64,000 nucleotides of DNA from Oscillospiraceae bacterium (GCA_031556035.1 JAVBTT010000024.1:38-64037), one strand, 5' to 3'. Positions 13,094 through 56,682 are shown, counted from the first letter of the stretch. Notes: generated by a model from the sequence alone, not told the origin. Made by a program: numbers and translations.

Positions 13094-13255
13094 AACGCGC
13101 GAAGAGCGGAGCCGGGCGGGGCCGGAAATAAGCGACGAGAAGCGAAGCGCACGAGGAAGATAATTTCCGGACAAAGCGCAGTACCCGCGAAGCGGGGACG
13201 GAGCGGCAGCCCGGCGGGAGCTTGACAACGCGCGAAGAGCGGAGCCGGGCGGGGC
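13094..13255 (+). repeat. Family-A structured repeat, copy 1, with head-to-tail restart (133-bp period)
   Basis: AACGCGCGAAGAGCGGAGCCGGGCGGGGC at 13094 and 13227; unit ends GGGAGCTTGACA. Confidence 0.75.
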
Positions 13256-13269
13256 GGGGCGGGGCCGGA

Positions 13270-13312
13270 ATCCCCCTGTCACTGCTGTGACGTCCCCCTT
13301 TGACAAGGGGGA
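13270..13312 (+). repeat. Short REP-like double hairpin
   Basis: TCCCCCTGTCACTGCTGTGACGTCCCCCTTTGACAAGGGGGA (GTCAC/GTGAC and CCCCTT/AAGGGG stems). Confidence 0.4.
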
Positions 13313-13339
13313 CGGGAGGGGCACCTCCTCCGCGATAGG

Positions 13340-14611
13340 ATGGGATTGATAATGCTGAATTGCTCGGGAGATTGCCTGAGTTGCCGAAGATGCCTCGGAG
13401 ACGGGCTCTCCATTCTCAAGGGGACAGATATACCCTCGTTTGAGCTTGACCCACCGGCCGGACGGGGCGCGGGTCTGTACGGTCTTGCCGTGGACATAGG
13501 CACCACGACGGTTGTCGCGAGTCTGTTCGAGCTATCAACAGGCCGGCAGACGGGCTGCGCCGCAGCCCCTAACGCGCAGCGGCGCTTCGGCGCCGATGTG
13601 ATAAGCCGCCTGAAGTACTGTGCTGACCACGGGCACGCGGAGCTGACGCAGGCGATACGCGGTCAGCTCGCCTCCATGGAGGAGGAGCTGCTCAAAGGCG
13701 CGGGCGGCGGCGAAATCGCCGGACGGGTGATCGCCGGCAACACGATTATGCAGCATCTGCACGCGGGGCTTGACCCCACCGGGATGGCCGCCGTGCCCTT
13801 TGTCCCGGCCAGCCTGTTCGGGCGCACAGTCGGCGGCGTTTACTACTGCCCGTGCGTCTCGGCTTATGTCGGCGGCGACATTACCGCAGGGCTGCTCGCC
13901 GCTGAGCGCAATGGCTTCTCAAAAGAGCGCTTTTATCTGGATATCGGCACAAACGGAGAGATGGCATTTCACGCCGGAAACCGGATTCTCGCGGCCGCTG
14001 CCGCAGCTGGGCCCGCGTTTGAGGGCGGGGAAATATCCTGCGGGATGCCCGCCTCGCCCGGCGCTGTCGACCATGTTTTTCTGGATGCTGGGAAGCTTTC
14101 GTATACCGTTGTCCCATCTCCGGACGGAGAAGTCCCTGTACCCGCCGGTATCTGCGGCACCGGGCTTGTGGATTTGCTGGCATGCCTGCTGAGGCTTGGA
14201 GCTGTGGACTCGAGCGGATACATGGGAAAGCCGTTCGAGCTCTGCGACGGAGTCGAGCTGCTGCCGGGGGATGTCAGGAGGCTTCAGCTCGCCAAGGGCG
14301 CGATGGCGGCGGGCGCGAAAACGCTGCTGTCGGCGGCGGGGCGGCGCATGGCCGGGACGGTGCATCTGGCCGGAGGCTTTGCCTCATACATGCGTATAAT
14401 CTCCGCCTGTGATATCGGCCTGCTGCCCAGGGAAACCGAGGTTGTGAGCGAGGGGCACGGAGCGGGAGTCGGCGCCTGCCTCGCGCTGCTGTCAGGGCGC
14501 GAGAGGCAAAGACTTGAGGAGATCGCCTCAATTTGCGAGCATGTGGAGCTGTCCGCCGACCCCGGATTTTCCGGGCTTTTTATGGAGGAGATGCTGTTTG
14601 AAGATATCTGA
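13340..14611 (+). CDS. ASKHA-domain protein of the RACo family (reductive activator of corrinoid enzymes)
   Basis: AVDIGTTT, FGADVISR, YVGGDITAG, DIGTNGE, AGPAFEG, GICGTG, QLAKGA. Confidence 0.88.
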   Translation: MGLIMLNCSGDCLSCRRCLGDGLSILKGTDIPSFELDPPAGRGAGLYGLAVDIGTTTVVASLFELSTGRQTGCAAAPNAQRRFGADVISRLKYCADHGHAELTQAIRGQLASMEEELLKGAGGGEIAGRVIAGNTIMQHLHAGLDPTGMAAVPFVPASLFGRTVGGVYYCPCVSAYVGGDITAGLLAAERNGFSKERFYLDIGTNGEMAFHAGNRILAAAAAAGPAFEGGEISCGMPASPGAVDHVFLDAGKLSYTVVPSPDGEVPVPAGICGTGLVDLLACLLRLGAVDSSGYMGKPFELCDGVELLPGDVRRLQLAKGAMAAGAKTLLSAAGRRMAGTVHLAGGFASYMRIISACDIGLLPRETEVVSEGHGAGVGACLALLSGRERQRLEEIASICEHVELSADPGFSGLFMEEMLFEDI

Positions 14612-14620
14612 TCCGCCTCT

Positions 14621-15364
14621 ATGAAAAGGCATAATTGGCGTCCGTTCGCTCTCGCGGCGTCCGTGGTCGTTGTCCTGCTCTCCTGCCTGCTGGTCTTCAG
14701 GGGTCTGTCGCGGTCTCCCGAGCCGCCTCAAGGGGGGCCGGGGCTTCCGGTATTTGATGAAACCCCTGCGGCTGAGCCGTCGGTATCCGAGACGCCTGAG
14801 CCGCCTAGCCCGGAGCCGTCCGTTTTTGATACCCCCTCCGCCGAGCCGTCGCCCTCCGCAGAGATAATCTCGGAGCCGGTTTGGGTTATTATACCCGCAA
14901 TAGGTACGGACGCGGAGCTTGCCGGCACCGAGAGGGACGAAAAGGCGGGCAGCATGGCGATATACCCGTCCGCCTCGGTCATTTCGTGGTATAAAGAGCG
15001 CCCGATCCCCGGCAACGAGGGCAACGCGATTCTGGCTGGGCACAACAAATGGAAGGGCGAGAAGGGGGCTGTAGCGGACCTTGGCGCCCTTGAAATCGGG
15101 GACGAGATGACGATACGCTACAATGACGGCTCCGAGAGGCTTTTCCTGCTGGAGAGTCTGTTCGAGTATGAGCTCAAGACTGCCCCCTCCGGTGAGATCA
15201 TGAGCGGGGACGGCCCGGCGCGCGTCACTGTGATAACCTGTAGCGGGAAGTTCAACACAAAGCTGGGCACAAGCGAGAACAGGCTGGTTGCGGTTTTCAA
15301 ACCGGCGGAGGTTTTTGTGACACCGGAGCCGCCGATCACCCCGATCCCGACGGTCGCGCGCTGA
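14621..15364 (+). CDS. Class F sortase
   Basis: N-terminal TM, Pro/Ser linker, PGNEGNAILAGH and VTVITC catalytic motifs. Confidence 0.85.
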   Translation: MKRHNWRPFALAASVVVVLLSCLLVFRGLSRSPEPPQGGPGLPVFDETPAAEPSVSETPEPPSPEPSVFDTPSAEPSPSAEIISEPVWVIIPAIGTDAELAGTERDEKAGSMAIYPSASVISWYKERPIPGNEGNAILAGHNKWKGEKGAVADLGALEIGDEMTIRYNDGSERLFLLESLFEYELKTAPSGEIMSGDGPARVTVITCSGKFNTKLGTSENRLVAVFKPAEVFVTPEPPITPIPTVAR

Positions 15365-15405
15365 CGACGCTTATGTAGGGCCGCCACGCGGCCCCCGCAA
15401 CTGTT

Positions 15406-15520
15406 ATAATGGTCCCACGATTAAACCTTGCCGAAATAGCTCCTCAAAATGCTCTGCCCGCTGTGCGGGCGGCGCATTTTCCCCGCCAATGGCGGCAAGG
15501 TTTAACTGGTACATCAATAT
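15406..15520. mobile_element. MITE-like element, family D (ATATTG...TTAAACCTTGCCG termini)
   Basis: Imperfect TIRs ...GATTAAACCTTGCCG / CGGCAAGGTTTAACTGGTACATCAATAT; partial copies at 42875-42943 and 51219-51247. Confidence 0.6.
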
Positions 15521-15681
15521 CAGCCTCCGATGTTCTCCATTACATGCCCGATCGCCCTTATGGTCTTTCCGGCGCTTGAGCGCATTATCTTTTTGCGGTC
15601 CATCGGCACCATGCACGCCGTCACGACAATGCCCGCAACCATGCCAAGGCCTATGCCCTTGAGAAGTCCACTGTTGTTCAT
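15520..15681 (-). CDS. Small 53-aa membrane protein (MNNSGLLKGIGLGMVAGIVVTACMVPMDRKK...)
   Basis: Strong AGGAGGA RBS; single Gly-rich TM followed by a basic helix; below the ORF-track cutoff. Confidence 0.7.
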   Translation of the reverse strand: MNNSGLLKGIGLGMVAGIVVTACMVPMDRKKIMRSSAGKTIRAIGHVMENIGG

Positions 15682-15786
15682 TGATGATTTTCCTCCTGTG
15701 AAGATTTACTTGACCGCCCGGAGGACGATCACTCCCGTCGTTCGATATAGTATGCCATTCTTTTATCAGTTTCACGGAGGTAATTT

Positions 15787-17669: not shown

Positions 17670-17670
17670 T

Positions 17671-17877
17671 ATGGGGTGCGTCCTGTGGCCGCTTAAGCTG
17701 ATATGGGGCTTCTTCGGGTTTCTGCTGGGAGTTCTGGGGAGGATACTCTGCGCCGTGCTCGGCTTTGTGCTTGTGGTCGTCGGAATTGTGCTGTGCATAA
17801 CGGTCATAGGTGTTTTCGCCGGCGCTCCAATCATCATGTTCGGCCTGCTGATGATGGTTAAATCGATATTCCCATAA
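17671..17877 (+). CDS. Small hydrophobic membrane protein
   Basis: 68-aa ORF with two TM segments, directly after pyrF. Confidence 0.6.
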   Translation: MGCVLWPLKLIWGFFGFLLGVLGRILCAVLGFVLVVVGIVLCITVIGVFAGAPIIMFGLLMMVKSIFP

Positions 17878-17933
17878 ATGATAAGCACTCTCAGCAATGG
17901 GAAATTGCATTTTTATTGCATATGAGGTGAAAT

Positions 17934-25272: not shown

Positions 25273-26156
25273 TTTCAGTATTCATCGACGGCCGGGAGGG
25301 TACCACCGGCCTGCAAATAGAGGAGCGTCTGAGGAATACGCCCGGCGTGAGGCTTCTAGACATCGCGCCGGAGCTGCGCAAGGACGAAAGCGAGCGAAAA
25401 AGGCTTCTGAATCAGGCGGACTGCGTTTTTCTGTGCCTTCCTGACGCAGCGGCGCGTCAGGCTGTCTCGTTTGTGGAGAACCCTTCAACCGTGGTCATCG
25501 ACGCCTCCACGGCGCACCGGACCGATCCGGCCTGGGCGTACGGCTTTCCAGAGCTTTCGCCCGCGCACGAGGAAGCGGTGAGGACATCGATGCGCATCGC
25601 GGTGCCGGGCTGCCACGCCAGCGGCTTTTGCGCGATTGTTTATCCTCTGGTTTCGCGCGGAGCGATTTCCCCCGACGCCCGGCTGACCTGCACATCTTTA
25701 AGCGGCTACAGCGGCGGAGGCAAGGCCATGATTGCCTCATACGAGGGCGAAAACCCGCCGCGCGGCGCCCGCCCCTACGCGCTGGGGCTGACCCACAAGC
25801 ACCTGCCTGAGATGACGTCGGTGTGCGGGCTTGAGTATCCGCCGGTTTTTCAGCCTATTGTCGCGCCGGTGCGGCAGGGAATGCTGGTCTCGGTTCCGCT
25901 GTTTATTGACGCGGAGTTTATACACAGCGTTTTGGAAAGCCACTATGCGCACGGCGGCAATGTGGCAGTGATGCCGCTGGGCGAGTCTCCCGACGGTTCG
26001 GTCATGGAGATGGAGGCCTTGAACGGCACGGACAGGCTGGAGATTTACGTTTTCGGGCATTCGACGCAGGCGCTTGTGATGGCAAAGCTCGACAACCTGG
26101 GCAAGGGAGCCTCCGGCGCGGCGGCGCAGTGCATGAAGCTGAGGTTTGGGCTGTAG
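25269..26156 (+). CDS. argC: N-acetyl-gamma-glutamyl-phosphate reductase (type 2)
   Basis: IDGREGTTGL, PGCHASG, DNLGKGASGAA. Confidence 0.93.
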
Positions 26157-26157
26157 G

Positions 26158-26334
26158 AAGAGCGGAGCCCCCGCGTGTGAGCAAAAATCCTAGGAGCGAT
26201 TGCAAGATTGCGACGACGGATTTTTGCGAACTGCGCGAAGAATCCGGCTGGAGCCCGCCAAAGGCGGGCGAAGGCGGATTTGGAGCGCAAGCGGGGGCGG
26301 GAGCTTGACATCATCGAAGAGCGGAGCCGGGCGG
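26158..26334 (+). repeat. Family-A structured repeat, copy 2, with restart
   Basis: AAGAGCGGAGCC (26158)...GGGAGCTTGACA (26310)-TCATCG-AAGAGCGGAGCCGGGC. Confidence 0.75.
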
Positions 26335-26407
26335 CGTTCGGACTCCGCCGTCAGACGGCTTACCTGGGCATATGAGTTTTACGCTTTGGAAAGGTACGGG
26401 CATAAAT

Positions 26408-30551: not shown

Positions 30552-30600
30552 GTATGAGTTTGATTATGACGGTGAAAACGGGAAAATCAATCCAATGCTA

Positions 30601-30641
30601 ATACTAATACCTGTTTAAAACCTGACGTTCAGAAATTTTGC
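30601..30641. repeat. Solo terminus of family-B MITE
   Basis: ATACTAATACCTGTTTAAAACCTGACGTTCAGAAA. Confidence 0.55.
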
Positions 30642-30821
30642 TCACGCGCGGGGGCTCCGCTATTCGGTGATGTCAAGCTGCGCTCCCCGCTTGCGCTCCG
30701 GCTTTGCCTGCGGCCCCTTCGGGGCCTCCGCCAAACGCCTGTGCGCAGCTCGCAAAAATCCCGCGTCGCGACCTAAAGGTCGCTCCTTGGATTTTTGCTC
30801 ACGCGCGGGGGCTCCGCTATT
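30635..30821 (-). repeat. Family-A structured repeat, copy 3, with restart
   Basis: Minus strand: AATAGCGGAGCC...GCAGCTTGACA-TCACCG-AATAGCGGAGCCCCCGCGCGTGAGCAAAA. Confidence 0.75.
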
Positions 30822-31781
30822 CTAAACATAAAACTCGTTCTTGCTGTCCCTCTCAAATAAGTCGGTAAGCGCCGTATGTGGATTGACCTTGCCCTCTATC
30901 GTGGCTGTCACGGCTGCACAGATAGGCAGTTCGACGCCGTACCGCTCCGACAGGCGCATCATGGAGCAGGCGGTCGAGACTCCCTCGGCAAGCTTGTCGT
31001 AGCTCTCGCCGGTGATTATACACTCCCCAAAGCGGCGGTTGTGGCTGTGCGGCGAGAACAGGGTGGCCTCATAGTCTCCCAGATGGCACAGTCCATATAC
31101 AGTGATCTCCCTGCCTCCCATCGCGCCGACCAGACGGGACACCTCGCGCGCTCCCCGCGCCATCAGCACGCCCTTAAGTGAAGAAAACCCGAGCCCGTCC
31201 AGCATGCCGGCCGCGATACCGACCACATTCTTGGCGGCTGCCCCTATCTCCGTGCCGATGATGTCCTCGCCGTAATAAAACCTTATCAGGGAGCCGGACA
31301 GGGCCTCAGCCAGCCTGCGGCTCAAGCCCTGCTCCACGGAATCTATGACCATACAATTCGGGATGCCCCGCACAAAGTCCTGAGGATGCCCGGGGCCTAC
31401 CCAGACCGCGAGGGGAAACCCTTCCCCCAACTCCTGCCGGACGACCTGCGTCAGGCGCAGTCCGCTGTCCCGCTCCAGCCCCTTCATGCAGAGCAGCATG
31501 GTTGCACCCGAGAAGGTGCTGATCTCCCTGCACAAGGCCCGGAGCTGCTGCGCACTGATAGCGACCAGCACAATGTCGGCTGCCGCAAGCGCCACGGACA
31601 GATTGTCGGTAAGCTCCACCCCGTCCGGGAGCTCCAGGTAGTCGTTGCTCCTTTTGTCCCGCAGCTCCAGCAGGCTTTTTGAGCCGGGTCTGCCCCACAC
31701 CAGCGTCCTGGCGCCTATACCGTCCATATACCAGGCTAAAAACGTGGCCCAGCGCCCGCAGCCAAGCACAGTTGCATTCAT
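30822..31781 (-). CDS. gpsA: NAD(P)H-dependent glycerol-3-phosphate dehydrogenase
   Basis: GCGRWA, MKGLE, AAAKNVVGIAAG, AEG...ELPI. Confidence 0.85.
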   Translation of the reverse strand: MNATVLGCGRWATFLAWYMDGIGARTLVWGRPGSKSLLELRDKRSNDYLELPDGVELTDNLSVALAAADIVLVAISAQQLRALCREISTFSGATMLLCMKGLERDSGLRLTQVVRQELGEGFPLAVWVGPGHPQDFVRGIPNCMVIDSVEQGLSRRLAEALSGSLIRFYYGEDIIGTEIGAAAKNVVGIAAGMLDGLGFSSLKGVLMARGAREVSRLVGAMGGREITVYGLCHLGDYEATLFSPHSHNRRFGECIITGESYDKLAEGVSTACSMMRLSERYGVELPICAAVTATIEGKVNPHTALTDLFERDSKNEFYV

Positions 31782-31798
31782 CTTGTTTCCTCCGGTTG

Positions 31799-31899
31799 AT
31801 ACTAATGCCTGCTTAAAACTTGCGCATATAAATTTGCGACAGCTCGCCCAGCAAGCTTTTGCAAATTTAAAATCGGAAGGTTTAACACGGGATTAGCAT
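31799..31899. mobile_element. Family-B MITE, ~100-bp form
   Basis: ATACTAATGCCTGCTTAAAACTT...GGAAGGTTTAACACGGGATTAGCAT. Confidence 0.6.
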
Positions 31900-31984
31900 T
31901 TGTTTTGTGGCGGTCGCTCCGCCATTCTTTTCTTTAGCTTATCACGCCGGGAACAGTATTACAATACTTTGAGGAATTAGAAAA

Positions 31985-32054: not shown

Positions 32055-35000
32055 TTAATCGGCTTCGATGATTATGCCGTTGACGTAAGCCTGGGAACCG
32101 CCGAATGTGAACGACATCACTCCATCGGCAACAACTACATTCTCCAGAACGAACGGCTCCATATTGGAATTGTTCCTTGAGCCGCTGGCGGTCACGCCGT
32201 TGACGTCGATCGTGATATTGTTGGTGCCGCCTATGTCGTTTCCGTAGACGGACGCTTTGTACGTGCCGTTGGGCACATTGACTTTGAACTGCCAGGTTCC
32301 GTTGGCGGTGCCGCCGCCGCCGACCCAGGAATTAGTCAGCGCGGTGCCTCCGGAACGGGTGCGGCCCTGGAAGTTGTTGCTTCCGCGGGGGACAATGCCC
32401 CAGCCCTGCTCAACGGTGTAGGGGGAAGAGGGTGCGCCGTTGTTGACGTTGCCGGTGCCGGTTATGGTGACAGAGGTCCAGTCCTCATATTTGACCATGC
32501 TGCTGGCTATGCCAAACTGGAACTTCATCGTCTCAAAATCCGGAACCACAGGCGTCTCGCCGCGTACAGATGTGAAGGTGAAGCTATAGCTCGGGAACAG
32601 GGCGGGATACTTGACGCCCTTCATCACGACCACGTCTCCCGCGACCGATCCGGCGTTAATTGTGAGCTTGGGGCCGTCCGCCGCGAAGCCGGGGGCCTTG
32701 ACTCCGTTGATTGTCATGGCGGCGGTGGCGTTAAAGGAGATATTCTCGGCGAAGAACACCACCGTCTGCCCCTCTGGGCTGTTGACGTCAACCTCGGCCT
32801 TCCAGATGTCGGTCGGGAGCTGCTTGACCGGGATAGCCTTGGACACTGCGGGCTCCTCACCCTCGAACCACGCCTTGACATAGACATTGGCGCTGGCGGT
32901 GCTGAACGCTCCGGCCTTGATTGTCGCCTGGCCGTTTACCGTCTTTGCGGATGCCGCGAGCACATCATCGACAAACAGTCCTGCAAAGATGTTGAGCGTG
33001 TCTGGATTGTTGGCGTTTACGGTCACGGGGATGTTGGCCGCGCAGCCGTTGACCAGATTGACAATGCGGGAGTCGACAGAGACGCCGAGTATGGCGGCCT
33101 GGTCGCCGGTGTTGAGAACCAGCGGCAGGGAGACCTTGGAAACGCCCTTGACTCCGGTGGCGGTCACGGTGTACTTGTACTCCACGCCCGGTACGATTGC
33201 GTCGTCCTGGTAGCCGACGGCTGTGAAGTCGCCGAGCTTCTCGCCATTGCGGTACAGTGTGTAGCCGGAGGCGTTGATGATCGGGGTCCAGTCGATGTAA
33301 GCCGAGGTGGCGGTAACGTTTTCGGCATGCGGCTGGGCCGGTGTGCGGGTGGTCATGTCATCAAAGTAGACGTCATGCGGATAGCGGGAGTAGTTAGCCA
33401 TGAAGTAGGTCTGCGGCTTGGGCTCTCCGGTGATACCGCTGCGCAGAACTTCAATTCTGTCGGCCTCGTTGAGGTTGCCTGCTTCGTCGACCTTGATATC
33501 TCCGTTGGCGTTGTTGTAGTAGATGCGGATTCTGCCGCTGTCGTCATAGCCGACGAGCTCGGTGCGGGAGTCGCCGCAGAGATCCATCGCCATGTAGCGC
33601 CAGTCGACGTTATTCTCGAACATGTAATCTCTGTCTTCCATGGGAACGCCCATTTTGAACAGCGTGTTGAAGTATCCGTCATAGAGTCCGGGCTCTCTGT
33701 AGTCGGTCATCCAGAGCGCTTTTCTCGTCGCCCGGTTGGCTGCGCCGCTGTTGCCCGCGCCCGCCGGGTAGGAATAATCTCTGGCGGCTGCGCGCGACTC
33801 GGTATTGCGGTTGAAGCTCAGGCAGAGCGGCGCGTAGGTGCCGGTCCAGTTGTCCACGCGGATGACGATTGAGGACCAACCCATCGGGTTGCCGTTCAGA
33901 GGCTGCTCCGGGGTTGCCTCGAAGGGATATTCCAGCTGGAGGAGATTGCCGTCCGAGCCGATGGTGAACATGGAATCCTTGCCCCAGCCGCTGTTGCTGG
34001 CGGCGCCTCGGGTGCGGCGGTCAAGGCCGTAGGTCATCAGCCCGTCGTGGTCGGTGCGGAACTGGGCCAGGTTCAAGGACTGGGGCTCAATGGCGCTGTT
34101 GCTGCACCAGAGGAACTTGCCGTCCCAGGTGTAGCAGAAGGTGGAGGTTCTTGTCATATCCGCAACCGAACCCGCGCCGTCCGGGCCTCCGCCTCCAAAC
34201 ATAACGCACAGGGGCTGGTCTTCGCCCATTATATAGCCGACCTGAATAGTGTCGCAGTGGTCGGTGGGCTTGATCTGGGTTGTGGTACCCGGATAATACA
34301 CCGGGGTGTCGTCGTTGAGCGGATCCCCGGCAGGACCTGATCTTTTTACAAGCTCAGCGTTGCACCACCAGAAGGGCTCTACAACAGGCTGCCCTGCGTT
34401 GCCGGTGGTTGCGTCGGCGGCGTGCCTGACGACGTTTCCGTCCTCATCTGTCTTGACTTTGAAGGTGCTGTAGCTGATGATCAGCTCATCAACGCGGTCG
34501 CCGTCCAGGTCAACCACCAGGGAGTAATGCCCCGCGAAGGTAAAGGGATTTCGCCCGTCAAGGGTTTGGCCTGGATTCTTGGTGGCAAAACGGTAGACGT
34601 AATCGCAGTTGAATTTGCCATCCTTATCGAACATCTCAAGGATCGTGACGTTCTCATAACGGCTCTTAAGGACTAAGAACTGATTGTCTGTAGCGCGGCC
34701 GTCGAAATTGCCGAAGGAGAATGCGTCGCCCAGGCAGTTGATGGAGCCGGTTCCGGAACCGGTGCTGGTCAGGCCGGGAACAGTCACGCTCGCCAAAGGC
34801 TTGTAGCAGTCATTTCCTGCCGTATCTTTCATCGGCTTGCCGGTGCGGCCATCCAGGACGACGATTATTGCGCCGGTATAGTTGGTTCCCCTGTCCTTAG
34901 ACGGGTGCATCATTGCCACGACCTCGTTTAAGCCGTCGCCGTTCACGTCCGCGATGTTGACCGGCTCGTCGGAGGAGGTGCTGACTACGCCAGTGTTGGG

Positions 35001-38000
35001 GTTTTCCGGATCATAGGCAGGGTCAATCGAGTATTCCCACAGAATCTCGCCCTCGAGATTGTATGCGATCAGCACGTAGATGACGCTGCCGTTTAAGCTG
35101 TAGTTGCTCTGCCTGGTCGTGTGGCAGACCAGTATGTCGGTCCGTCCGTCGCCGTCCAGGTCGCCCAGCCGCAGGCGGCTGCCCCTGACCTTGGCCTGGA
35201 AGCTGTTGATCAGCACCGCGTCGTCGTTGGCCAGCGCGATGAAGGCCTCCATGGTCTTTGCGGACTCACCGGCGTCGTTGTATGCGGAAACGCTGTACCA
35301 GTAGTCGGTGCCGAGCTCAACGGCGTTATCGACATAGCCGGCGCTGTTGATTGTGGCAATTCTCTCGGCGGAGCCGCCCTTGGAGTCGCGGCGGTAGATG
35401 TGGTAGCCGTCCGCTCCGTCGACTGCGTCCCACTTGATGGTGACGGAGTCCTCGGTTACCGGGCTGTACTCAACGTTCGCCGGCATTGCGGGAGCCGAAG
35501 GAATTTCGGGCTGCGGGATGTAGATGTCGGTGCGCTGCGCGGGAAGCGGGGCCTCGTCGCCGAGGTAGAAGCTGGCAAACCCGATCTGGTTGTAACCGGC
35601 GTTGGTGTTTGCCACGCCCTGGCGGTACATCGGGTCGTGCATCAGGGTACGGATGCCGTACTCGGTCGGGGCCAGGGTGGTGACTATGGCAAGGCGGTTG
35701 CCGGATGCGCGGAGCACGAGCTCCTCGCGCCAGTCGCCCAGCAGGTCGGCCTTCAAGGTCGGGGTGGACTTGTTGCCGGTGGAGGTCAGGCCGGTGGCCA
35801 GATAGGCTGTGGCCGCAAAGGTCTCGTCGTTAATCGAGTTAATGGTGGCGCTGCTGACGCCCATATGAGTCAGGCCGCCGCCGAACCAAATGGCGTTTTG
35901 GCCTTGTGTGATTCCGCGCGCCGAGTTGCCGGTACCCACAAATTCTCCGTTAATCAGGCTTTTGGGCTTGGTGGTGGAGCTGCTTGTGCCGCCCTGAGCG
36001 CCCGGCCAGCGGTTGGAGAAGTTGCCGGCCACGCTTCCCTCGTCGTCAGACTGGGTATATGTGCTGTAAATCAGGGAGTTGGTCTGGACAATATTGCCGT
36101 TTGCGTCGCGTTTCCTGCCCTCAAGCGGGTCATGGGCCTGCACGCCGGTCAGGTAGCCGTAGACTTCGCCTGTGCGGATGTCGTCCAGGAACCATTCCTC
36201 TGCGCCGGACCACTGAACTATTTTGTTGGTCTTGTCTCTGGGCAGCAGTGCTTCGCGGTCGCCGTGGCGGAACGGAGCCCAGATGTTGCGCGGGTCGTTG
36301 CGGATTGCGGCGGTGCCGAACTCATATCCGAGCGGCGGGTAGCCGTTAGCAACGGTGTCCTTCATAAACGCGTCGGAAGGCATCGTCTCGCCGTTGATGA
36401 CCATGGGAAGGATCTTGTTTTTCGCGGCGTTCATGCCGAGAACCATGCCGATCATCACAATCTCGTCCTTGCCGTCGCCGTTTACGTCACCGGAGTTGGT
36501 GTGGTGAGCGCCGCGGTTCTGGTAGTCGTAGGCCTCTCCGCCCAGGCTCCAGTACTGCGGATCCTTGGAGTCAAAGGCTGCCTGGAGGTTAACCTTGCCG
36601 TCCACAATGTTGAAGGCGGAATAGGTGGTTCTCTCGTAGTAGCCGCGCTGGGATACTGCGTACCAGTTCTCGCCGTCGAGGCATGCCACTACGCCGCAAT
36701 AGCGGTTGGCGCGGTTGCCCTGAGCGTCGCCCCACTTGGCGGCCTTCCAGGGGTTCCTGATCCAGTAGTTTTCTTTTAACTGCATGATCTGCGATTTGTA
36801 GGCGTCGCCGGCTCCGCCGCTGCCCTGGCTGACGAGCGGGAAGGAGACGTAGCAGTAGTTGCCACGCTGTGTGCAGGGGTTCATGGCCCAGTTTTCGCCG
36901 TCAACGCTGGCCCTGAAGGGGAACGGATATTTGGCGGAATCAATGAGCACGCCCTTGCCGGCAGCCGCGTCATACTCAAAGGCGGACATAAACTCGTTGT
37001 CGTCTTTGGAGAGGCCCATGCGTCCGAGGTGGTAGGTCTTGATCCATCTCTTGTACTCGGGTGCGTTGGCTCCGTCGTTTCCGCTGTTTGATATTTGGGT
37101 GGCGACAGGGCCAAGATTGCCGCCGCTCTGCGGTGTGCGGTAGCAGATTGTAAAGCTGTTCATCACGCCCCAGAACTGGTCAAGGGCGGTGGTATTACCG
37201 GCTGCGAAGTATTCTTTAAACTTGTCTGTCGTGGCGTTGAGTCCAAGCTCTCCGCCGACAACGGTGTTGGCGGTGTCGGGATATACGACTGCCTGCGCCT
37301 CTTCGTCCCAGTTGCCGATACGGGCGCCCAGACCGGTTTTGAGCATAAGCTCGCTCTTGCCGTCGCCATCAAAGTCGCCGACAAGAATCGGGGACTCGTG
37401 GTCGTTGCCGGAGGTATAGTTATATCCGGTGTCTACGCGGAACAGCAGGGTGCCGTCCAGCTTGTAGACGTCGTAATACTCGGGTGCGTTTCCGATGCTT
37501 CCACCGGAGTAAATCGGCTCGGAATACATGGGATCGGGGCTGCTGGAGCGCCATTTCATGACAATCTCGTATTCGCCGTCGCCGTCAAAGTCGCCCACGG
37601 ACATGTCGTGCGTACTGTAGCCGGAGCTGTTTGAGGTATAGATCGAGCTGCCGTTCATGTAGTAGGGGAGCTTAGTCCCGCAGTCGAGATTCTCGACATA
37701 CTTGATAAATTCGGCTTCCAGCTCGTCAAACAGAGCCTTGGTTATCTTCCCGTCAACAAGGGCGTTTACCGGAGCCCAGGCGGCGGTTTCGTAGGTCTTC
37801 ACGCCCAGCGCGTTGGCTGTCGTGTTGTAGGTGTTGATCTTGGAGACGAACGCGTCTATCACGGACTGCTCCACAACAGCACCCGTCTGGTAGGGCTCGC
37901 GGACGGTCTTGAGCAGATCCATGTCAACCACGTACCAGTGCTGGCCGCTCGTATTACCGCTCCAGCCCTCGGTGCCCGGGATGACCATATTGTTGGCGCT

Positions 38001-38552
38001 GATGTTGCCTGTCCTGGAGCCGCGGTAGGACCACGCCGGAAGCGGCACGCTGGACGGAGCAGGCTTGAGCGGTATGTACTGCACGGCGCCCCTGTTGCCC
38101 TGGCCGCTGCCTCCCGCCAGGGCGGACAGCACGGGCACGCTCATGCCCTGCTTCTGGCCCTCGATGCCGCCGATGACCGGGGCGACTTCGTAGACGGAGG
38201 CGATAACGCCGTCCGGGTCGGTGTAGTTGGTCGGGGTGGTGTTTTCCTTAACGATGCCCGGGTTTTCCGCGTAGCTGCTCTCGGGCTGCACGTCGCGGGG
38301 GGCGACGGTGGCGATTTTCACGCCGTCGCGGTAGACGTTCCAGGAGATGCCGTCGGGCTCGTTGCCCAGAAAGCGCCAGCTGAGGTACATGCCGCCTTCA
38401 ACCTGGGCGGCGACCAGACCGCGTGTCAGGTATTCCATCGGGCGCAGAACCTGCGCCGCCTCTGCGGACGCCGGGGTGCTGAATGCGAACAGGGATACGC
38501 ACATCAGAAGCGCCAGGGTAAGGGAAGTCGCTTTTCTCAGGGTCTTTCGCAT
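32055..38552 (-). CDS. Secreted multidomain rhamnogalacturonan lyase (PL11/YesW-like) with two FG-GAP propeller modules, two Fn3 domains and a C-terminal galactose-binding-like domain
   Basis: Signal peptide; MEYLTRGLVA...YLSWRFLG, GDFDGDGEYEIVMKW, RGYYERT, ADLLGDWREE, TLMHDPMYR; second GDLDGDGRTD module. Confidence 0.85.
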   Translation of the reverse strand: MRKTLRKATSLTLALLMCVSLFAFSTPASAEAAQVLRPMEYLTRGLVAAQVEGGMYLSWRFLGNEPDGISWNVYRDGVKIATVAPRDVQPESSYAENPGIVKENTTPTNYTDPDGVIASVYEVAPVIGGIEGQKQGMSVPVLSALAGGSGQGNRGAVQYIPLKPAPSSVPLPAWSYRGSRTGNISANNMVIPGTEGWSGNTSGQHWYVVDMDLLKTVREPYQTGAVVEQSVIDAFVSKINTYNTTANALGVKTYETAAWAPVNALVDGKITKALFDELEAEFIKYVENLDCGTKLPYYMNGSSIYTSNSSGYSTHDMSVGDFDGDGEYEIVMKWRSSSPDPMYSEPIYSGGSIGNAPEYYDVYKLDGTLLFRVDTGYNYTSGNDHESPILVGDFDGDGKSELMLKTGLGARIGNWDEEAQAVVYPDTANTVVGGELGLNATTDKFKEYFAAGNTTALDQFWGVMNSFTICYRTPQSGGNLGPVATQISNSGNDGANAPEYKRWIKTYHLGRMGLSKDDNEFMSAFEYDAAAGKGVLIDSAKYPFPFRASVDGENWAMNPCTQRGNYCYVSFPLVSQGSGGAGDAYKSQIMQLKENYWIRNPWKAAKWGDAQGNRANRYCGVVACLDGENWYAVSQRGYYERTTYSAFNIVDGKVNLQAAFDSKDPQYWSLGGEAYDYQNRGAHHTNSGDVNGDGKDEIVMIGMVLGMNAAKNKILPMVINGETMPSDAFMKDTVANGYPPLGYEFGTAAIRNDPRNIWAPFRHGDREALLPRDKTNKIVQWSGAEEWFLDDIRTGEVYGYLTGVQAHDPLEGRKRDANGNIVQTNSLIYSTYTQSDDEGSVAGNFSNRWPGAQGGTSSSTTKPKSLINGEFVGTGNSARGITQGQNAIWFGGGLTHMGVSSATINSINDETFAATAYLATGLTSTGNKSTPTLKADLLGDWREELVLRASGNRLAIVTTLAPTEYGIRTLMHDPMYRQGVANTNAGYNQIGFASFYLGDEAPLPAQRTDIYIPQPEIPSAPAMPANVEYSPVTEDSVTIKWDAVDGADGYHIYRRDSKGGSAERIATINSAGYVDNAVELGTDYWYSVSAYNDAGESAKTMEAFIALANDDAVLINSFQAKVRGSRLRLGDLDGDGRTDILVCHTTRQSNYSLNGSVIYVLIAYNLEGEILWEYSIDPAYDPENPNTGVVSTSSDEPVNIADVNGDGLNEVVAMMHPSKDRGTNYTGAIIVVLDGRTGKPMKDTAGNDCYKPLASVTVPGLTSTGSGTGSINCLGDAFSFGNFDGRATDNQFLVLKSRYENVTILEMFDKDGKFNCDYVYRFATKNPGQTLDGRNPFTFAGHYSLVVDLDGDRVDELIISYSTFKVKTDEDGNVVRHAADATTGNAGQPVVEPFWWCNAELVKRSGPAGDPLNDDTPVYYPGTTTQIKPTDHCDTIQVGYIMGEDQPLCVMFGGGGPDGAGSVADMTRTSTFCYTWDGKFLWCSNSAIEPQSLNLAQFRTDHDGLMTYGLDRRTRGAASNSGWGKDSMFTIGSDGNLLQLEYPFEATPEQPLNGNPMGWSSIVIRVDNWTGTYAPLCLSFNRNTESRAAARDYSYPAGAGNSGAANRATRKALWMTDYREPGLYDGYFNTLFKMGVPMEDRDYMFENNVDWRYMAMDLCGDSRTELVGYDDSGRIRIYYNNANGDIKVDEAGNLNEADRIEVLRSGITGEPKPQTYFMANYSRYPHDVYFDDMTTRTPAQPHAENVTATSAYIDWTPIINASGYTLYRNGEKLGDFTAVGYQDDAIVPGVEYKYTVTATGVKGVSKVSLPLVLNTGDQAAILGVSVDSRIVNLVNGCAANIPVTVNANNPDTLNIFAGLFVDDVLAASAKTVNGQATIKAGAFSTASANVYVKAWFEGEEPAVSKAIPVKQLPTDIWKAEVDVNSPEGQTVVFFAENISFNATAAMTINGVKAPGFAADGPKLTINAGSVAGDVVVMKGVKYPALFPSYSFTFTSVRGETPVVPDFETMKFQFGIASSMVKYEDWTSVTITGTGNVNNGAPSSPYTVEQGWGIVPRGSNNFQGRTRSGGTALTNSWVGGGGTANGTWQFKVNVPNGTYKASVYGNDIGGTNNITIDVNGVTASGSRNNSNMEPFVLENVVVADGVMSFTFGGSQAYVNGIIIEAD

Positions 38553-50052: not shown

Positions 50053-50054
50053 GG

Positions 50055-50136
50055 AAGAGGGCAGCCGGCAGGGTTCTTGAATAACCCGGGAATGGTTGCT
50101 AAAGGCAAGCGCGCGCAGGCTGTGCGGAGCTTGACA
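50055..50136 (+). repeat. Family-A repeat, short divergent copy 4
   Basis: AAGAGGGCAGCC...GGCTGTGCGGAGCTTGACA. Confidence 0.5.
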
Positions 50137-51203: not shown

Positions 51204-51218
51204 GCCTAAAACCTGTTT

Positions 51219-51304: not shown

Positions 51305-51305
51305 G

Positions 51306-51353
51306 AATACCCCCAAACGCCGCCCAGGGAGCCGGGGCGCGTTTGGGGGTATT
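51306..51353 (+). terminator. Stem-loop downstream of mtnA
   Basis: AATACCCCCAAACGC...GCGTTTGGGGGTATTT. Confidence 0.55.
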
Positions 51354-51406
51354 TATGTTGTGTTTATAGAGTTATTGTGGTAAAATATGTGATCGGAGGT
51401 GTTCAT

Positions 51407-52858: not shown

Positions 52859-52860
52859 AT

Positions 52861-52915
52861 CTTCAAAATCCCTTCTCAATCGCTTCACACTTTCTCCATA
52901 TTGTGAGGCTATACT
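52861..52915 (+). promoter_or_regulatory. CssR-like direct-repeat operator and -10 upstream of htrA
   Basis: CTTCAAA/CTTCTCA/CTTCACA/CTCCATA at 52861, 52872, 52883, 52894; TATACT at 52910. Confidence 0.6.
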
Positions 52916-52954
52916 TAAATCACACTAAGGCGATTGAGAAAGGGGTAAAATAAA

Positions 52955-54283
52955 ATGGACGACAACAGATATACATTTTCGATTGAAAAACCCGAGGAGC
53001 TCTCCCCTCCGCCGAAAAAGAGGAGAAGCCGCGCGGCCATAATAGCGCTGGTGCTCGTGGGAGCCATGTTCTTCTCGGCGCTGGGCGGCGTATCCGGCAT
53101 CTATCTGGCGGATCACTTCAGACCTGGGACCTCGGACGGCAATACACCAGTTTCCGAGCAGGACAACCAGAATCCTCCGTCCGCGTCAACGCCCAACTCC
53201 AATTCCACCGACAAGCTCGCGTCCATAACCACTCCGGACAACGGGCAGCTCACCGTGACTCAGGTTTTCAACAAATGCAACCCGGCTGTCGTGGCCATAG
53301 CGACAGAGACCACAACCAACGTATTCGGTCAGAGCGTATCACAGGCGGCGGCCGGCTCGGGCTTCATCATCTCCAGCAGCGGATACGTGGTCACCAACAA
53401 CCATGTGATCAGCGGTGCGAGCAGCATAACGGTAATGCTTTACGACGGCAAGGAATACACGGCCAAGCTGATCGGCAGCGACAAGGCTACCGACCTCGCG
53501 GTGCTGAAAATTGAAGGCACGGGCTTTACTTACCTTGACCTCGGCGACTCAAGCAAACTTGTTGTCGGCGAGCAGGTCGTCGCCATAGGGAACCCGCTCG
53601 GCGAGCTCGCAAACAGCCTGTCGGTTGGATATATCAGCGCCCTCGCGCGTACAATAAACATTGACGGCGATCCGATGGTCATGCTCCAGACCGACGCGTC
53701 CGTCAGCCCCGGCAACTCCGGCGGCCCTCTTATCAATCTGTACGGTCAGGTCATCGGCATTGTCTCAGCTAAGAGCACCGGCAGCGGCGTTGAGGGCATA
53801 GGCTTCGCGATCCCGATGAACACGGCCATCGACGTCATCAACTCCCTCATTGACAACGGGTACGTCACCGGAAGGCCCTACTTCGGAATCTCCGTTCAGT
53901 ACTTCTCCGGCAACACCGCGGCATATTACAACATTTCGGACGGGCTCTACGTCATGTCGGTCGAAGCCGGAAGCTGCGCGGAAAAGGCCGGCCTCAAGGT
54001 TGGCGACAGAATAATCTCTCTCGGAGGTACCGCCATAAACTCCACGTCCGACCTCCAAACCGCAAAGCTTACATTCAGGGCGGGCGCCACCGCGGCGCTT
54101 GTGGTGAGCAGGAACGGCCAGGAGCTCACTCTCAGCGTAACCTTTGACGAGGAAAAGCCGGCCCCGGACTCGAACTCCGGATCCAATCCCTCCGGTGGCA
54201 ACTCCCAGACACCCTGGGGCAACACTTACCCCTGGGGCGGCGGGATGACCCCCTGGGGCAGCGACAACGGCAGCGGAACCTGA
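52955..54283 (+). CDS. htrA: HtrA/DegP-type serine protease (TM, trypsin, PDZ)
   Basis: GSGFI, TNNHV, DLAVL, PGNSGGPL, PDZ. Confidence 0.93.
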   Translation: MDDNRYTFSIEKPEELSPPPKKRRSRAAIIALVLVGAMFFSALGGVSGIYLADHFRPGTSDGNTPVSEQDNQNPPSASTPNSNSTDKLASITTPDNGQLTVTQVFNKCNPAVVAIATETTTNVFGQSVSQAAAGSGFIISSSGYVVTNNHVISGASSITVMLYDGKEYTAKLIGSDKATDLAVLKIEGTGFTYLDLGDSSKLVVGEQVVAIGNPLGELANSLSVGYISALARTINIDGDPMVMLQTDASVSPGNSGGPLINLYGQVIGIVSAKSTGSGVEGIGFAIPMNTAIDVINSLIDNGYVTGRPYFGISVQYFSGNTAAYYNISDGLYVMSVEAGSCAEKAGLKVGDRIISLGGTAINSTSDLQTAKLTFRAGATAALVVSRNGQELTLSVTFDEEKPAPDSNSGSNPSGGNSQTPWGNTYPWGGGMTPWGSDNGSGT

Positions 54284-54335
54284 TCATAAGTCTTTAAAGC
54301 GCCTGGGCGGGCTTTCCGCCCGGAAGGAGACGGCT

Positions 54336-55007
54336 ATGAAAATATTGGTAGCTGACGACGAGGCCCGCCTGCGCAGGCTGCTTGGCGACTTTCTCAAGCG
54401 GGAGAGCTTCGAGATTGTAGAGGCCCCGAACGGGCGGGACGCGGTCAGCGCACTGCGCGAAACCTCCGGCATATCGCTTGTGATAATGGACGTCATGATG
54501 CCCGTTATGAACGGGATCGACGCCTGCCGCGAGATAAGGCTGTTCAGCGACGTCCCGATCCTCATGCTCACCGCCAAGAGCCAGGAGGAGGACGAGCTGG
54601 AGGGCTTCGCCTGCGGCGCCGACGACTACCTCACAAAGCCGTTCTCAATGCCTGTGCTGCTGGCCCGTGTCCACTCGCTCCTCAAGCGCGGCGGCGAGAC
54701 GAGCGAGACAAAACTCTCCTCTGGCGACATCACCGTCGATATGCGCGCGCATCAGCTTTTTGTTTCCGGCAGGCCGGTGGACGTAACTCCCAGGGAATTC
54801 GAGCTCATGCACTATTTTATAAAAAATAAAAACATAGCCCTGTCGCGCGAGCAGATACTCAACATGGTGTGGAACTACGACTTTTACGGCGACGCGCGCA
54901 CGATCGACACCCATGTAAAAAACCTGCGCATGAAGCTCGGCCCCGCCGGGGACCGCATCAGGACAGTGCGAAGCTATGGCTACAAGCTAGAGGATGATCA
55001 GGCATGA
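54336..55007 (+). CDS. OmpR-family response regulator
   Basis: ADDE, MDVMMP, KPF, RTIDTHVKNLR. Confidence 0.93.
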   Translation: MKILVADDEARLRRLLGDFLKRESFEIVEAPNGRDAVSALRETSGISLVIMDVMMPVMNGIDACREIRLFSDVPILMLTAKSQEEDELEGFACGADDYLTKPFSMPVLLARVHSLLKRGGETSETKLSSGDITVDMRAHQLFVSGRPVDVTPREFELMHYFIKNKNIALSREQILNMVWNYDFYGDARTIDTHVKNLRMKLGPAGDRIRTVRSYGYKLEDDQA

Positions 55008-56536
55008 GACTCAAGCTGACCCCCAAGATGTTCCTGCTGGTCGCCTCCGTTTTAATATTGCAGTTTGCGCTCATATTAATATTTGGGAGCACGATGGTTG
55101 AGAAAATGTATCTCAGCGACAAGCGCAACGAGCTTTTGAGAGCTTTCCGCCAGGCACAGGAGAAATACGATCCCTCCGGAGATTACGCGGAGCAGCTCGC
55201 CTTCAGAACATGGTCCTTTGAGCTGCAAAACCAGAGCACGACCATAACCGTTTGGGACGGCGGCGGCAGACTCGTCTCGACGACCTCGCTGTTTTTCATG
55301 GATTACGCCGAGAGGAGCTCCGGCCGCGTCTTTCCCTTCGGTCAGCAGAGGACGGTACAGGTTACATTTGACGTGGACAAGTTTGACGAGCTCCTCTCCG
55401 GCGGCGAGTACGCATATCTCGACAATCTTGTCCTCGAGGTATACGGCAGGGCTGTATCGATAAACCGTTCCAATCAGGAGCAGATGTACCTGATGGGCAC
55501 AAACGGCGGAGGCGACTATTTCCTTCTGGAAACTCCCCTAGAGCCGATCCAGGCCGCCGCGGGCCTGGCGGTGCGCTCCTCCATGCTGGGAGGCATAATT
55601 GCCCTCGGCTTCGGACTGCTGATAACCGCGGTCGTCATCTACTACACCGCCAAGCCCATCCGGCAGATGAAGCGGGTGGCGGGAAACCTCGCAAAGCTCG
55701 ACTTTTCAGAAAAAGTCCAGGTGCGCTCACGCGATGAGCTGGGCGAGCTGGGCGAGAGCATCAACAGCATGTCGGACGCAATGCAGAGCTACACCACCGA
55801 GCTCAGCGCGGCCAACGAACAGCTAAAGCGCGACATTGAGGAGCGTCTCCGCTCCGAGCAGGCTCAGAAACAGCTGGTTTCGAATATCTCCCACGAGCTG
55901 AAAACTCCGCTGGCGCTAATCTCCGGGTACGCCGAGGGACTGCGCGAGGGAATGGCCGAGGATCCGGTCGTAAGGGATGAATATTGCGATGTGATACTGG
56001 ACGAGAGCCGGCAAATGACCAAGCTGCTGCATCAGCTGCTGGGGCTGGCGAGGCTTCAGAGCGGAACTGGCCTGTTTTCGCCCGGACCGGTCGATCTCTC
56101 CGACCTCTCCGACGAGATGGCGTCCGGCTTCTCGCTCCCGGCCCGGCAGCGGGGAGTCACACTCAGGATGGAGATAGACAGCGGGCTCATAGTCTTGGCG
56201 GAGCGGGACGCCTGTGAACAGGTGCTGCGCAACTACCTTTCAAACGCGATGAAGCATGTGCCCGACGGAGGGCTTATAAGGGTGACACTGCGCGGAACGG
56301 ACAGCGGCAGGGCCCGTCTTGAGGTCTACAACAGCGGCTCAAGCATACCGGACAAGGCGCTGGATCGCGTGTGGGACAGCTTTTTCAGGGTGGACGAGGC
56401 CAGAAACCGTGAATCCGGCGAGGTAGGGCTCGGGCTCAGCATAGTCAAGGCGCATATGACGCGCCATTCGGCGCCGTACGGAGTGTACAATACGGACGAC
56501 GGAGTGGTGTTCTTCGCGGAATTTGAAATAATATAA
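55004..56536 (+). CDS. HAMP sensor histidine kinase
   Basis: SHELKTP, NAMKH, GLGLSIV. Confidence 0.92.
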   Translation: MRLKLTPKMFLLVASVLILQFALILIFGSTMVEKMYLSDKRNELLRAFRQAQEKYDPSGDYAEQLAFRTWSFELQNQSTTITVWDGGGRLVSTTSLFFMDYAERSSGRVFPFGQQRTVQVTFDVDKFDELLSGGEYAYLDNLVLEVYGRAVSINRSNQEQMYLMGTNGGGDYFLLETPLEPIQAAAGLAVRSSMLGGIIALGFGLLITAVVIYYTAKPIRQMKRVAGNLAKLDFSEKVQVRSRDELGELGESINSMSDAMQSYTTELSAANEQLKRDIEERLRSEQAQKQLVSNISHELKTPLALISGYAEGLREGMAEDPVVRDEYCDVILDESRQMTKLLHQLLGLARLQSGTGLFSPGPVDLSDLSDEMASGFSLPARQRGVTLRMEIDSGLIVLAERDACEQVLRNYLSNAMKHVPDGGLIRVTLRGTDSGRARLEVYNSGSSIPDKALDRVWDSFFRVDEARNRESGEVGLGLSIVKAHMTRHSAPYGVYNTDDGVVFFAEFEII

Positions 56537-56682
56537 GAGCGGAGCCGGGCGAGTCTCTAAAAATCCAAGGAGCGGCCTTTAGGCCGAGACGCAGGATTTT
56601 TAGAGACAAAGCGCAGGGTCTGCCGCAGTGGGCGAAGCCCACGCAGGCAGGCCAGGAGCGACAGCCCGGCGGGAGCTTGACA
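56535..56682 (+). repeat. Family-A structured repeat, copy 5
   Basis: AAGAGCGGAGCCGGGC...GCCCGGCGGGAGCTTGACA. Confidence 0.75.

Follow-up and report, generated by a model that had tools for sequence, protein, structure and literature searches.

A stretch of 64,000 nucleotides from the genome of an Oscillospiraceae bacterium (contig C16:38-64037 of genome G000; the whole stretch is referred to as the window) carries five copies of a folded repeat of about 150 bases, here called family A, which is a real repeat family spread to about 85 sites in this one gut bacterium and has apparently not been described so far. Tentatively, at a probability of roughly 45%, family A can be regarded as a new small, non-autonomous mobile interspersed repeat that has proliferated in G000, is now located inside host transcripts and has been copied beyond its unit length. 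The evidence comprises a covarying fold on the sense strand, ends that pair with each other and restart downstream, a strict placement at the first untranslated bases behind genes, and a patchy distribution among relatives.

Family A in the source genome

The G000 assembly comprises 2.46 Mb in 41 contigs at 56% G+C and is 81% complete. Searching it by nhmmer with a profile started from 40 copies defined by regular expression gave 121 matches at E values up to 1, among them 65 covering all 147 positions, and a covariance model built from 44 copies (R1) finds 76-82 matches in the same genome. The 13-nt 5' module alone, allowing for up to one mismatch, occurs 150 times in G000 versus 11 times for the reversed control; in four relatives it is present 0-4 times each, which is the control level of these genomes. 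In the window itself, the end motifs are likewise found above chance, with 8 matches to the 5' motif (2.4 expected) and 12 to the 3' motif (3.5 expected).

Comparison with Rfam 15 (4227 models) at gathering thresholds did not result in any match in the 64-kb window. In permissive mode, applied to 11 loci with copies from five genomes, the sole overlap was with the Clostridiales-1 model at 25.4 bits versus a cut-off of 48 bits. Neither at gathering thresholds in the window nor in permissive mode at these 11 loci were hammerhead, twister, twister-sister, pistol, hatchet or HDV-like ribozymes among the matches. Full-text literature searching did not retrieve a description of such a repeat, which leaves open that one exists. 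With R1, a model is now at hand for annotating family A, copies of which break short-read assemblies of these genomes.

A covarying three-way junction on the sense strand

Joint folding of the 44 copies by RNAalifold resulted in a three-way junction, in which a terminal stem of 4 bp (P0) pairs both ends of the element, a closing stem of 5 bp (P1) comes next, and two arms are formed, the long, A/T-rich P2 bearing an internal loop and P3 being capped by a short hairpin. Compensatory changes are found in 26 of the 41 pairs of this alignment of G000 copies. In an independent count, standard pairs account for 94.9% of the cells versus 79.1% in column shuffles, none of 500 shuffles reaching the former value, and pairing falls to 30-41% when partners are slid by 1-3 columns. 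Across genera, pairing amounts to 95.4% versus 69.8%, with changes on both sides in 35 of the 41 pairs, the terminal stem included, albeit in a model-guided alignment (37 copies from eight genomes and six genera) that leans towards the model. Hence, the single fold that a preliminary description, made from the sequence alone, had proposed for the long copies of the window is confirmed by both the RNAalifold structure and the pairing count; of the checks it had put forward, the covariance model reveals strong covariation and the comparison with Rfam gives no family at the gathering threshold.

The unit of about 147 nt begins with G-AAGNGC and ends with GCN'TGACA. While the helices covary, the G-AAG start, the TGACA end and the junction words AAGCGCAG and CGGAGCG are kept across genera. 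Most G000 copies also bear a Shine-Dalgarno-like AAGGAG within the internal loop of P2, which is lost in two other element-bearing genomes, G008 and G009.

Paired columns hold 45 G.T against 18 A.C combinations, and the sense strand folds better than the antisense strand in four of four copies as RNA and in three of four as DNA. Because of this wobble bias and the better folding, the folded strand should have the polarity of the neighboring genes, i.e., the folding strand is predicted to be the sense strand. The GAA, AAA and GCA triloops pointed out in the preliminary description are real, as 81 of 123 hairpin loops predicted for 65 copies have 3 nt and are mostly of the C-GNA-G or C-AAA-G type. 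Such triloops are especially stable in DNA, which is a hint only.

Element ends, restarts and arrays

Family A had been proposed to bear a rolling-circle nick motif, CTTG/ACA, at its 3' end. This assignment does not hold, since CTTG varies between CTTG, CGTG and CATG and its middle T covaries as a paired base. In detail, the 3' end reads GCTTGACA, as in G000, GCGTGACA or GCATGACA, and the variable base is paired to its counterpart in the 5' words AAGAGC, AAGCGC and AAGTGC, so that other genera combine AAGCGC with GCGTGACA or AAGTGC with GCATGACA. The respective pair 4-213 is CG in 13, AU in 11 and UA in 11 sequences. As this pair covaries, CTTG is to be seen as one state of the 4-bp terminal stem and not as a fixed cleavage word. 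TTGACA is likewise unconserved as a -35-like hexamer, and the upstream flank is conserved solely at the base just before the element. In contrast to the nick motif, the view of a dispersed, structured, non-autonomous family lacking terminal inverted repeats is borne out, the ends having only P0 and the offset P1 in common.

The basic form of family A is module-body-module, and its arrays run head-to-tail. Another 5' module follows within 24 nt downstream in 48 of the 65 full copies, hence the restarts previously noticed in the window are a general feature. Typically, a restart is a copy of the element's own 5' end over 10-25 nt and comes after a short spacer, usually a TCACCCG variant in G000 and TAG in G009. 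Among the 16 cases with a non-consensus upstream 12-mer, the downstream one is identical in 9, compared with a permutation mean of 0.8 and none of 10,000 permutations reaching 9. From these sequence identities, the downstream module tends to be a copy of the upstream one. Restarts identical to their own copy are also present in G009 and G014, and are diverged in G004. Overall, this architecture is compatible with a rolling-circle-like copying beyond unit length. Copies without restart do not show a flank repeat by inspection, and a check for target-site duplication revealed a recurrence of the 5-9 nt upstream flank as spacer in 4 first-copy loci, not in most.

Of the 150 5' modules in G000, 74 are followed by a 3' module and the remaining 76 are solo, the latter being located after a full copy (31), alone right after a stop codon (27) or elsewhere (18) and having a length of 10-24 nt in 55 cases. 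Furthermore, short forms with internal deletions join the 5' module almost directly to the 3' module, G009 possesses a second type of interior between the same two ends, and the G008 copies continue on the 3' side into a conserved extension similar to the 5' module and able to pair with it. At one G000 locus (C12:24905-25057), a copy is directly followed by an inverted instead of a direct 5' module.

Placement and orientation

Positions were related to a rough in-house gene call (1973 genes, 87.5% of the genome). The 98 family A matches at E values up to 0.001 form 85 arrays. Relative to the upstream and downstream gene, these are co-oriented with both in 56 cases, with the upstream gene only in 11, with the downstream gene only in 10 and with neither in 7, i.e., 77 of 84 arrays have the direction of at least one neighbor. 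A replication-strand bias as cause was rejected, as the agreement with GC skew (59 of 85 arrays) is no better than that of genes (66%). Therefore, orientation tracks transcription and not replication.

Matches starting at model position 1-2 (n = 93) comprise 15 that come after another copy and 78 that are first in their array. For 55 of the latter, a co-oriented gene ends within -35 to +9 nt, either with a gap of 0-9 nt (41 copies) or with the open reading frame (ORF) running 2-35 nt into the element and stopping there (14 copies). Consequently, at least 14 predicted proteins gain element-encoded C-termini. In the 46 arrays where at least 100 nt of other intergenic DNA are available, 37 start within -36 to +9 of the stop versus 7.5 expected for a uniform distribution, hence the stop-codon placement is not due to mere lack of room. 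A G immediately precedes the element in 80 of 81 cases, T never occurs one position further upstream, and positions -3 to -9 are A/T-rich. For the 23 first copies away from a called gene end, a -10-like hexamer is located 4-14 nt upstream in 6, compared with 7.7% of random intergenic positions.

Similar placements are seen in relatives. The single good copy of G014 lies 12 nt after the signal recognition particle (SRP) RNA gene, a bacterial large SRP RNA (172.9 bits; L047, 1223-1489) being present immediately upstream. In G004, a copy is found 5 nt after tuf and ahead of a flavin mononucleotide (FMN) riboswitch (113.3 bits; L044, 1747-1890).

The sense placement at the first untranslated bases is explained neither by space nor by replication. 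It points to an insertion coupled to the state of transcription or translation, or to a preference for the A/T-rich patches of stops and -10 boxes combined with selection on orientation.

Distribution in related genomes and sequencing runs

Within one small family of the Oscillospiraceae type (GTDB level), R1 has matches in 9 of 30 genomes, with 82 in G000, 12 each in G008 and G009, 4 in G043 and 1-2 in five others, while none was found in 16 genomes from other families of the order. Even in G001, a genome of the same genus as G000 (95% complete), no copy was detected with R1 and the 5' module is at control level. Scanning species-representative genomes by pattern yielded 75 loci, of which only 7, from two metagenome-assembled records named 'Oscillospiraceae bacterium', are true members, the rest being chance matches in GC-rich genomes. 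A corresponding scan of JGI metagenomes resulted in 5 matches without any family member (best R1 score 15.9 bits).

The preliminary description had suggested comparing empty with filled sites, and the element is indeed missing at orthologous sites, whereas exact boundaries were not obtained, as the intergenic DNA is too diverged. In G001 and G005, the junction orthologous to the filled argC-argJ site of G000 consists of a compact stop-ribosome-site-start spacer and is free of the element. Conversely, the tuf site is filled in G004 and empty in G012, a genome of the same genus as G004, as well as in G000 and G008.

The region is present in two sequencing runs of one study (invertebrate gut), a DNA run, possibly the source of the assembly itself, and a metatranscriptome. 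Contigs of the RNA run carry gene-to-element junctions, for which carry-over of DNA is possible. Contigs of both runs contain a joint from window position 26178 to 26332, skipping 153 nt, that is not in the assembly and may represent a solo-module allele at the argC site. Most other joints in the run data were rejected as cross-mapping between copies, for example 30691 to 30794, which corresponds to the short form at C8:63393.

Copies in the window

All five stretches proposed in the preliminary description are present at the positions it gave. The following features were established with R1 (run with filters off), Pfam for flanking genes and inspection of the sequence.

13088..13093, plus strand: TATAAT hexamer of the extended -10 type (TG-A before it), its end lying 8 nt upstream of the element; read from the sequence
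13102-13227, plus strand: family A copy, P3 arm shortened, within the 5' region of a gene of the RACo family (R1, 102.5 bits; downstream gene by Pfam)
13228..13255, plus strand: 7-nt spacer and 21-nt restart of the own 5' module (restart at 13235)
26158-26310, plus strand: family A copy between an argC-type gene (semialdehyde dehydrogenase) and argJ (R1, 122.2 bits; genes by Pfam)
26311..26336, plus strand: 6-nt spacer and partial 5' module of the other (GGGC) subtype (restart at 26317)
30671-30821, minus strand: family A copy directly after gpsA (R1, 139.2 bits; gene by Pfam)
30636..30670, minus strand: 6-nt spacer and 29-nt restart with the rare AATAGC variant (restart at 30664)
50055-50136, plus strand: short degenerate member (R1, 18.9 bits, E 0.008)
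56535-56682, plus strand: family A copy that overlaps the stop codon (TAA, 56534-56536) of a histidine-kinase gene (R1, 137.1 bits)

The genes next to these copies are ordinary ones (argC/argJ, gpsA, a histidine kinase, a response regulator and the RACo-family gene), and all five copies are co-oriented with a flanking gene, as had been stated. In agreement with the earlier account, four are located at a stop codon (26158, 30821 on the minus strand, 50055 and 56535). The one at 13102 starts instead 8 nt after TATAAT and is among the 6 first copies with a -10-like hexamer; a sigma-70 scan, which also demands a -35 hexamer, did not call a promoter at 13088..13093. The conserved base just before the element is G13101 for the first copy and, for the copy after gpsA, the G of the TAG stop (30822). 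The argC-argJ copy starts 1 nt after TAG (26154-26156), the whole feature spanning 26157..26310, and the short member, which retains both end modules with a reduced interior, begins 2 nt after the TGA of the response-regulator gene.

The three restarts previously noticed, at 13235, 26317 and 30664 (minus strand), come after spacers of 7, 6 and 6 nt, respectively. At 13235, the match to the own copy extends over 21 nt (19 nt for the best other copy), and the spacer beginning at 13228 is identical to the 7 nt upstream of the 13102 copy. The restart at 30664 has the AATAGC variant in common with its own copy, matching it over 29 nt, while the best other copy matches over 2 nt. The copy at 56535-56682 (RNA fold at -83.8 kcal/mol, z of -9.27) is without restart and is followed by a different GC-rich repeat.

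Candidate enzymes

Among the candidates considered as mover (Y1_Tnp, RAYT, RVT_1, TnpB-type, integron integrase, Y2_Tnp and Rep_1), none tracks the element, and all were rejected. G000 encodes three RAYT-like Y1 proteins (C24:85730-86218, C35:16210-16680 and C24:53831-54367), one of them scoring 77.6 bits versus the NCBIfam cut-off of 80 bits, and one group II intron reverse transcriptase. A search of G000 for TnpB-type proteins gave no match, and the best hit to the integron integrase model TIGR02249 reached 77.5 bits versus a cut-off of 265 bits. Searches for Rep_1 and Y2_Tnp likewise came out negative in G000 (81% complete), though weakly so, as the control genomes were silent, too. The cognate HUH enzyme implied by the earlier reading is accordingly not supported, given that the Y1_Tnp distribution does not follow the element and that Rep_1 and Y2_Tnp gave the weak negatives mentioned. 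As for copies next to a Y1 gene, also proposed as a check, the RAYT gene examined has no family A flanks.

Origin of family A

The family is patchily distributed, orthologous sites are empty, copies are found truncated or nested and modules have been shuffled, all of which indicates a selfish interspersed repeat. The one-strand covarying fold, the paired ends and the terminal repeat derived from the own copy suggest a folded single strand as the active form, with new copies being produced from a fixed start over slightly more than one unit. Mechanistically, a circular or tandem template might be copied from a fixed start (G-AAG) for slightly over one unit length. Such over-length copying would generate the terminal direct repeat as well as arrays, and solo modules would result from loss of the body between two modules. 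Insertion would be directional, at places where DNA or RNA becomes ribosome-free, just behind A/T-rich stop or -10 sequences. The active folded strand would be the sense strand, present either as single-stranded DNA (ssDNA), favored by the C-GNA-G triloops, or as transcript, and the enzyme would act in trans. According to a more specific and unlikely version, the mobile element lacks its own enzyme, and a folded sense copy comprising just over one circuit of a circular template would be placed by host machinery precisely at the site of ribosome release, be it a stop codon, the beginning of a transcript or an RNA gene's end. In this version, insertion would be linked to transcription or translation, for example via the displaced strand of an R-loop, and not to DNA sequence.

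Several observations weigh against a mobile repeat. Y1_Tnp is present in 14 of the 30 family genomes, 3 of 9 bearing the element and 11 of 21 free of it, and RVT_1 in 7, again without tracking (2 of 9 and 5 of 21, respectively). G009, with 12 family A copies and 87% complete, lacks a detectable Y1 as well as RVT_1. An autonomous copy was not found, as nowhere in G000 is an ORF enclosed by two end modules, which at 81% completeness is not proof of absence, and the split copies in this genome all have small inserts. BLAST against phages and plasmids and a pattern scan of IMG/VR gave no family A match. A clean empty/filled pair at nucleotide resolution is missing, the relatives being too divergent (69% protein identity within the same genus), and the run data consist of contigs only, which break at every copy and are silent on RNA ends, circles and expression level. 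The short side of the 26178-26332 joint has only 27 letters and its break is out of register with the two modules. Positions 13-15 agree in only about 25 of 48 module pairs, so many restarts are not simple copies, and the spacer equals the upstream flank of 5-9 nt in only the 4 first-copy loci mentioned, the window copy at 13102 included. Finally, the junction bases conserved across genera would equally fit a functional RNA.

In line with the latter point, family A might be a cis-acting mRNA module (a processing site, a stabilizer of the flanking cistrons or an insulator against Rho or exonucleases) that works at the first untranslated bases and for which spreading is secondary. We regard this function as a doubtful but live rival, and the mobile-repeat and RNA-module readings are not mutually exclusive. 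It would account for the sense orientation of 77 of 84 arrays, the wobble bias on the sense strand, the conservation of AAGCGCAG, CGGAGCG and TGACA across genera alongside covarying helices, the location inside operons requiring read-through such as argC-argJ, the start either at a stop codon or some 8 nt behind a -10 box, at the place where a transcript would begin, the AAGGAG in the P2 loop of most G000 copies and the presence of the element in RNA-run contigs. However, sites are not conserved, with tuf being filled only in G004 and not in G012, G000 or G008 and argC-argJ being empty in G001 and G005, the same-genus G001 does without any copy, truncation has reduced 76 of the 150 5' modules to stumps, G008 and G009 do not keep the AAGGAG loop, and no Rfam family matches. 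Triloops, making up 81 of 123 hairpins here, are moreover unusual in selected RNA hairpins. As a rather improbable alternative, identical terminal direct repeats, head-to-tail arrays, the fixed 5' and variable 3' end, the sense orientation in transcripts and the group II intron reverse transcriptase of G000 could be explained by a retro-element- or viroid-like unit, i.e., a terminally redundant read-through or circularized RNA that is reverse-transcribed in trans and re-inserted. This is contradicted by RVT_1 being detected in just 2 of the 9 genomes with the element, G009 not among them, by the lack of matches to known self-cleaving ribozyme families and by C-GNA-G triloops favoring DNA over RNA.

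Still less probable is the ssDNA rolling-circle element originally proposed, with an HUH-type nick at CTTG/ACA like that of phiX174 gpA, pC194 Rep or the IS91 type. While the GCTTGACA end in G000, the restarts and arrays, the DNA-type triloops and the three RAYT-like Y1 genes are in its favor, CTTG becomes CGTG or CATG in other genera and covaries as described, Y1_Tnp fails to follow the element, searches of G000 for Rep_1 and Y2_Tnp were negative (as said, weakly), and orientation follows genes and not replication skew. Besides, the RAYT gene lacks family A flanks and a GTAG-hairpin repeat with 140 matches is the likelier RAYT partner. Hardly credible, finally, is an assignment of the copies to divergent Clostridiales-1 (RF01699) small RNA genes. 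One G008 copy together with its 3' extension does align over the whole RF01699 model (25.4 bits, E 0.036), having GGGAG and CGGA in common, but this score is below the 48-bit cut-off, none of 41 relatives matches RF01699 at E 0.01, three true members from G139 (93.9-130.9 bits) reach at most 9.2 bits (E 0.33) with R1, and RF01699 has a four-way junction in contrast to the three-way junction of family A.

Comparison with known repeats

Bacteria commonly carry small interspersed repeats, the majority being palindromic or bounded by inverted ends with a transposase that can be identified. Family A stands apart by direct terminal repeats, a covarying three-way junction with conserved junction bases and a strict sense orientation, and by starting within a few bases of stops even where hundreds of intergenic bases are free. 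If this placement reflects the mechanism of insertion, the target would be chosen by the state of transcription or translation; if it reflects function, a portable RNA module would decorate about 4% of the genes of a gut anaerobe.

Pneumococcal BOX elements (boxA-boxB-boxC) are described as small, modular, base-paired and non-autonomous, occurring in more than 100 copies with paired end modules, being co-transcribed with their neighbors and varying in length by internal gain or loss of modules (PMC3049150). Judged by this portion of the source, family A resembles BOX as a small modular paired-end interspersed repeat that is non-autonomous, has many copies and lies within transcripts. However, BOX ends are terminal inverted repeats similar to those of ISSpn2, and adjacency to stop codons is not among the features given in the cited part (PMC3049150). 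By its 4-bp terminal stem, direct terminal repeats, three-way junction and strict stop-codon start, family A is thus set apart by description. Assignment to the MITEs (miniature inverted-repeat transposable elements) was also rejected, as the ends form only the 4-bp P0 and the offset 5-bp P1 instead of terminal inverted repeats, the terminal repeats are direct and no parent insertion sequence with the same ends was found in the 81%-complete G000.

With repetitive extragenic palindromes (REPs) and their pairs (REPINs), family A has in common that it is a high-copy extragenic structured repeat in a genome with RAYT-like genes. REPs are short palindromes with a 5' GTAG-type word and often come as inverted pairs, whereas family A has about 147 nt and a three-way junction, is arranged head-to-tail and does not co-occur with Y1 genes. 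Integron attC sites are comparable in conserving structure over sequence, in a folded strand with paired ends, in the branched center of long attC forms and in their location directly 3' of an ORF in the same orientation, which is a resemblance and not a membership. The attC end consensus RYYYAAC...GTTRRRY is absent from family A, no integrase was found above cut-off, the neighbors are syntenic core genes (argC/argJ, gpsA and tuf) and not cassettes, and family A units also occur in tandem without ORFs. Mycobacterial MIRUs are minisatellite units of 46-101 bp, read as small ORFs for translational coupling, which form direct tandem repeats inside operons in sense orientation and abut or overlap the upstream stop codon. 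Family A is similar in having sense direct repeats in operons at the stop codon of the upstream gene, but unit and spacer together have about 154 nt, a length not divisible by 3, and its pattern of conservation reflects base pairing. Likewise, Clostridiales-1 RNA is restricted to Clostridia, has about 160 nt, an outer stem and a long first hairpin, and its function is not known; in contrast to the dozens of family A copies, true members in G139 number 3-4 per genome.

Other repeats and loci

Several other repeats are located close to family A copies. A GC-rich repeat with a GTAG-type head and hairpin (CTGTAGGGGC..., window 56683-56760) has 140 matches in G000 and often abuts family A restarts. 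It looks like a classical REP, and the three RAYT-like genes are plausible candidates for its partners. Directly after the family A restart at the first window copy, a repeat with 34 matches in G000 begins with GGAATCCCCCTG... and continues into a CCCCCTTT...AAGGGGG hairpin (window 13266-13330). Another repeat, CCCTCTCAGNCCCTG... (15 matches), occurs nested in family A copies, where a position in the P2 arm behind CACGAC is used recurrently, as found at the following loci.

G000 C8:31431-31621; C5:83929; C5:87205; C8:84033: CCCTCTCAGNCCCTG repeat in family A copies

The 5' module as a shared head of other repeat families was considered and rejected, since it precedes only 9 of 140, 4 of 34, 3 of 36, 6 of 15 and 0 of 38 copies. 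Upstream of gpsA, an A/T-rich palindromic repeat with a length of about 100 nt is present (window 31790-31900), with a partial copy at 30597-30640 downstream of the family A copy and similar copies on contigs C39 and C41; the joints from 30626 to 31851 in the run data are due to cross-mapping of this repeat. The segment 15432-15519, with about four-fold contig depth compared to its surroundings and several joints to other window positions, is probably another repeat. Finally, the window bears two very long ORFs, both on the minus strand, 2-5848 with at least 1949 aa and open-ended, and 32055-38552 with 2165 aa.

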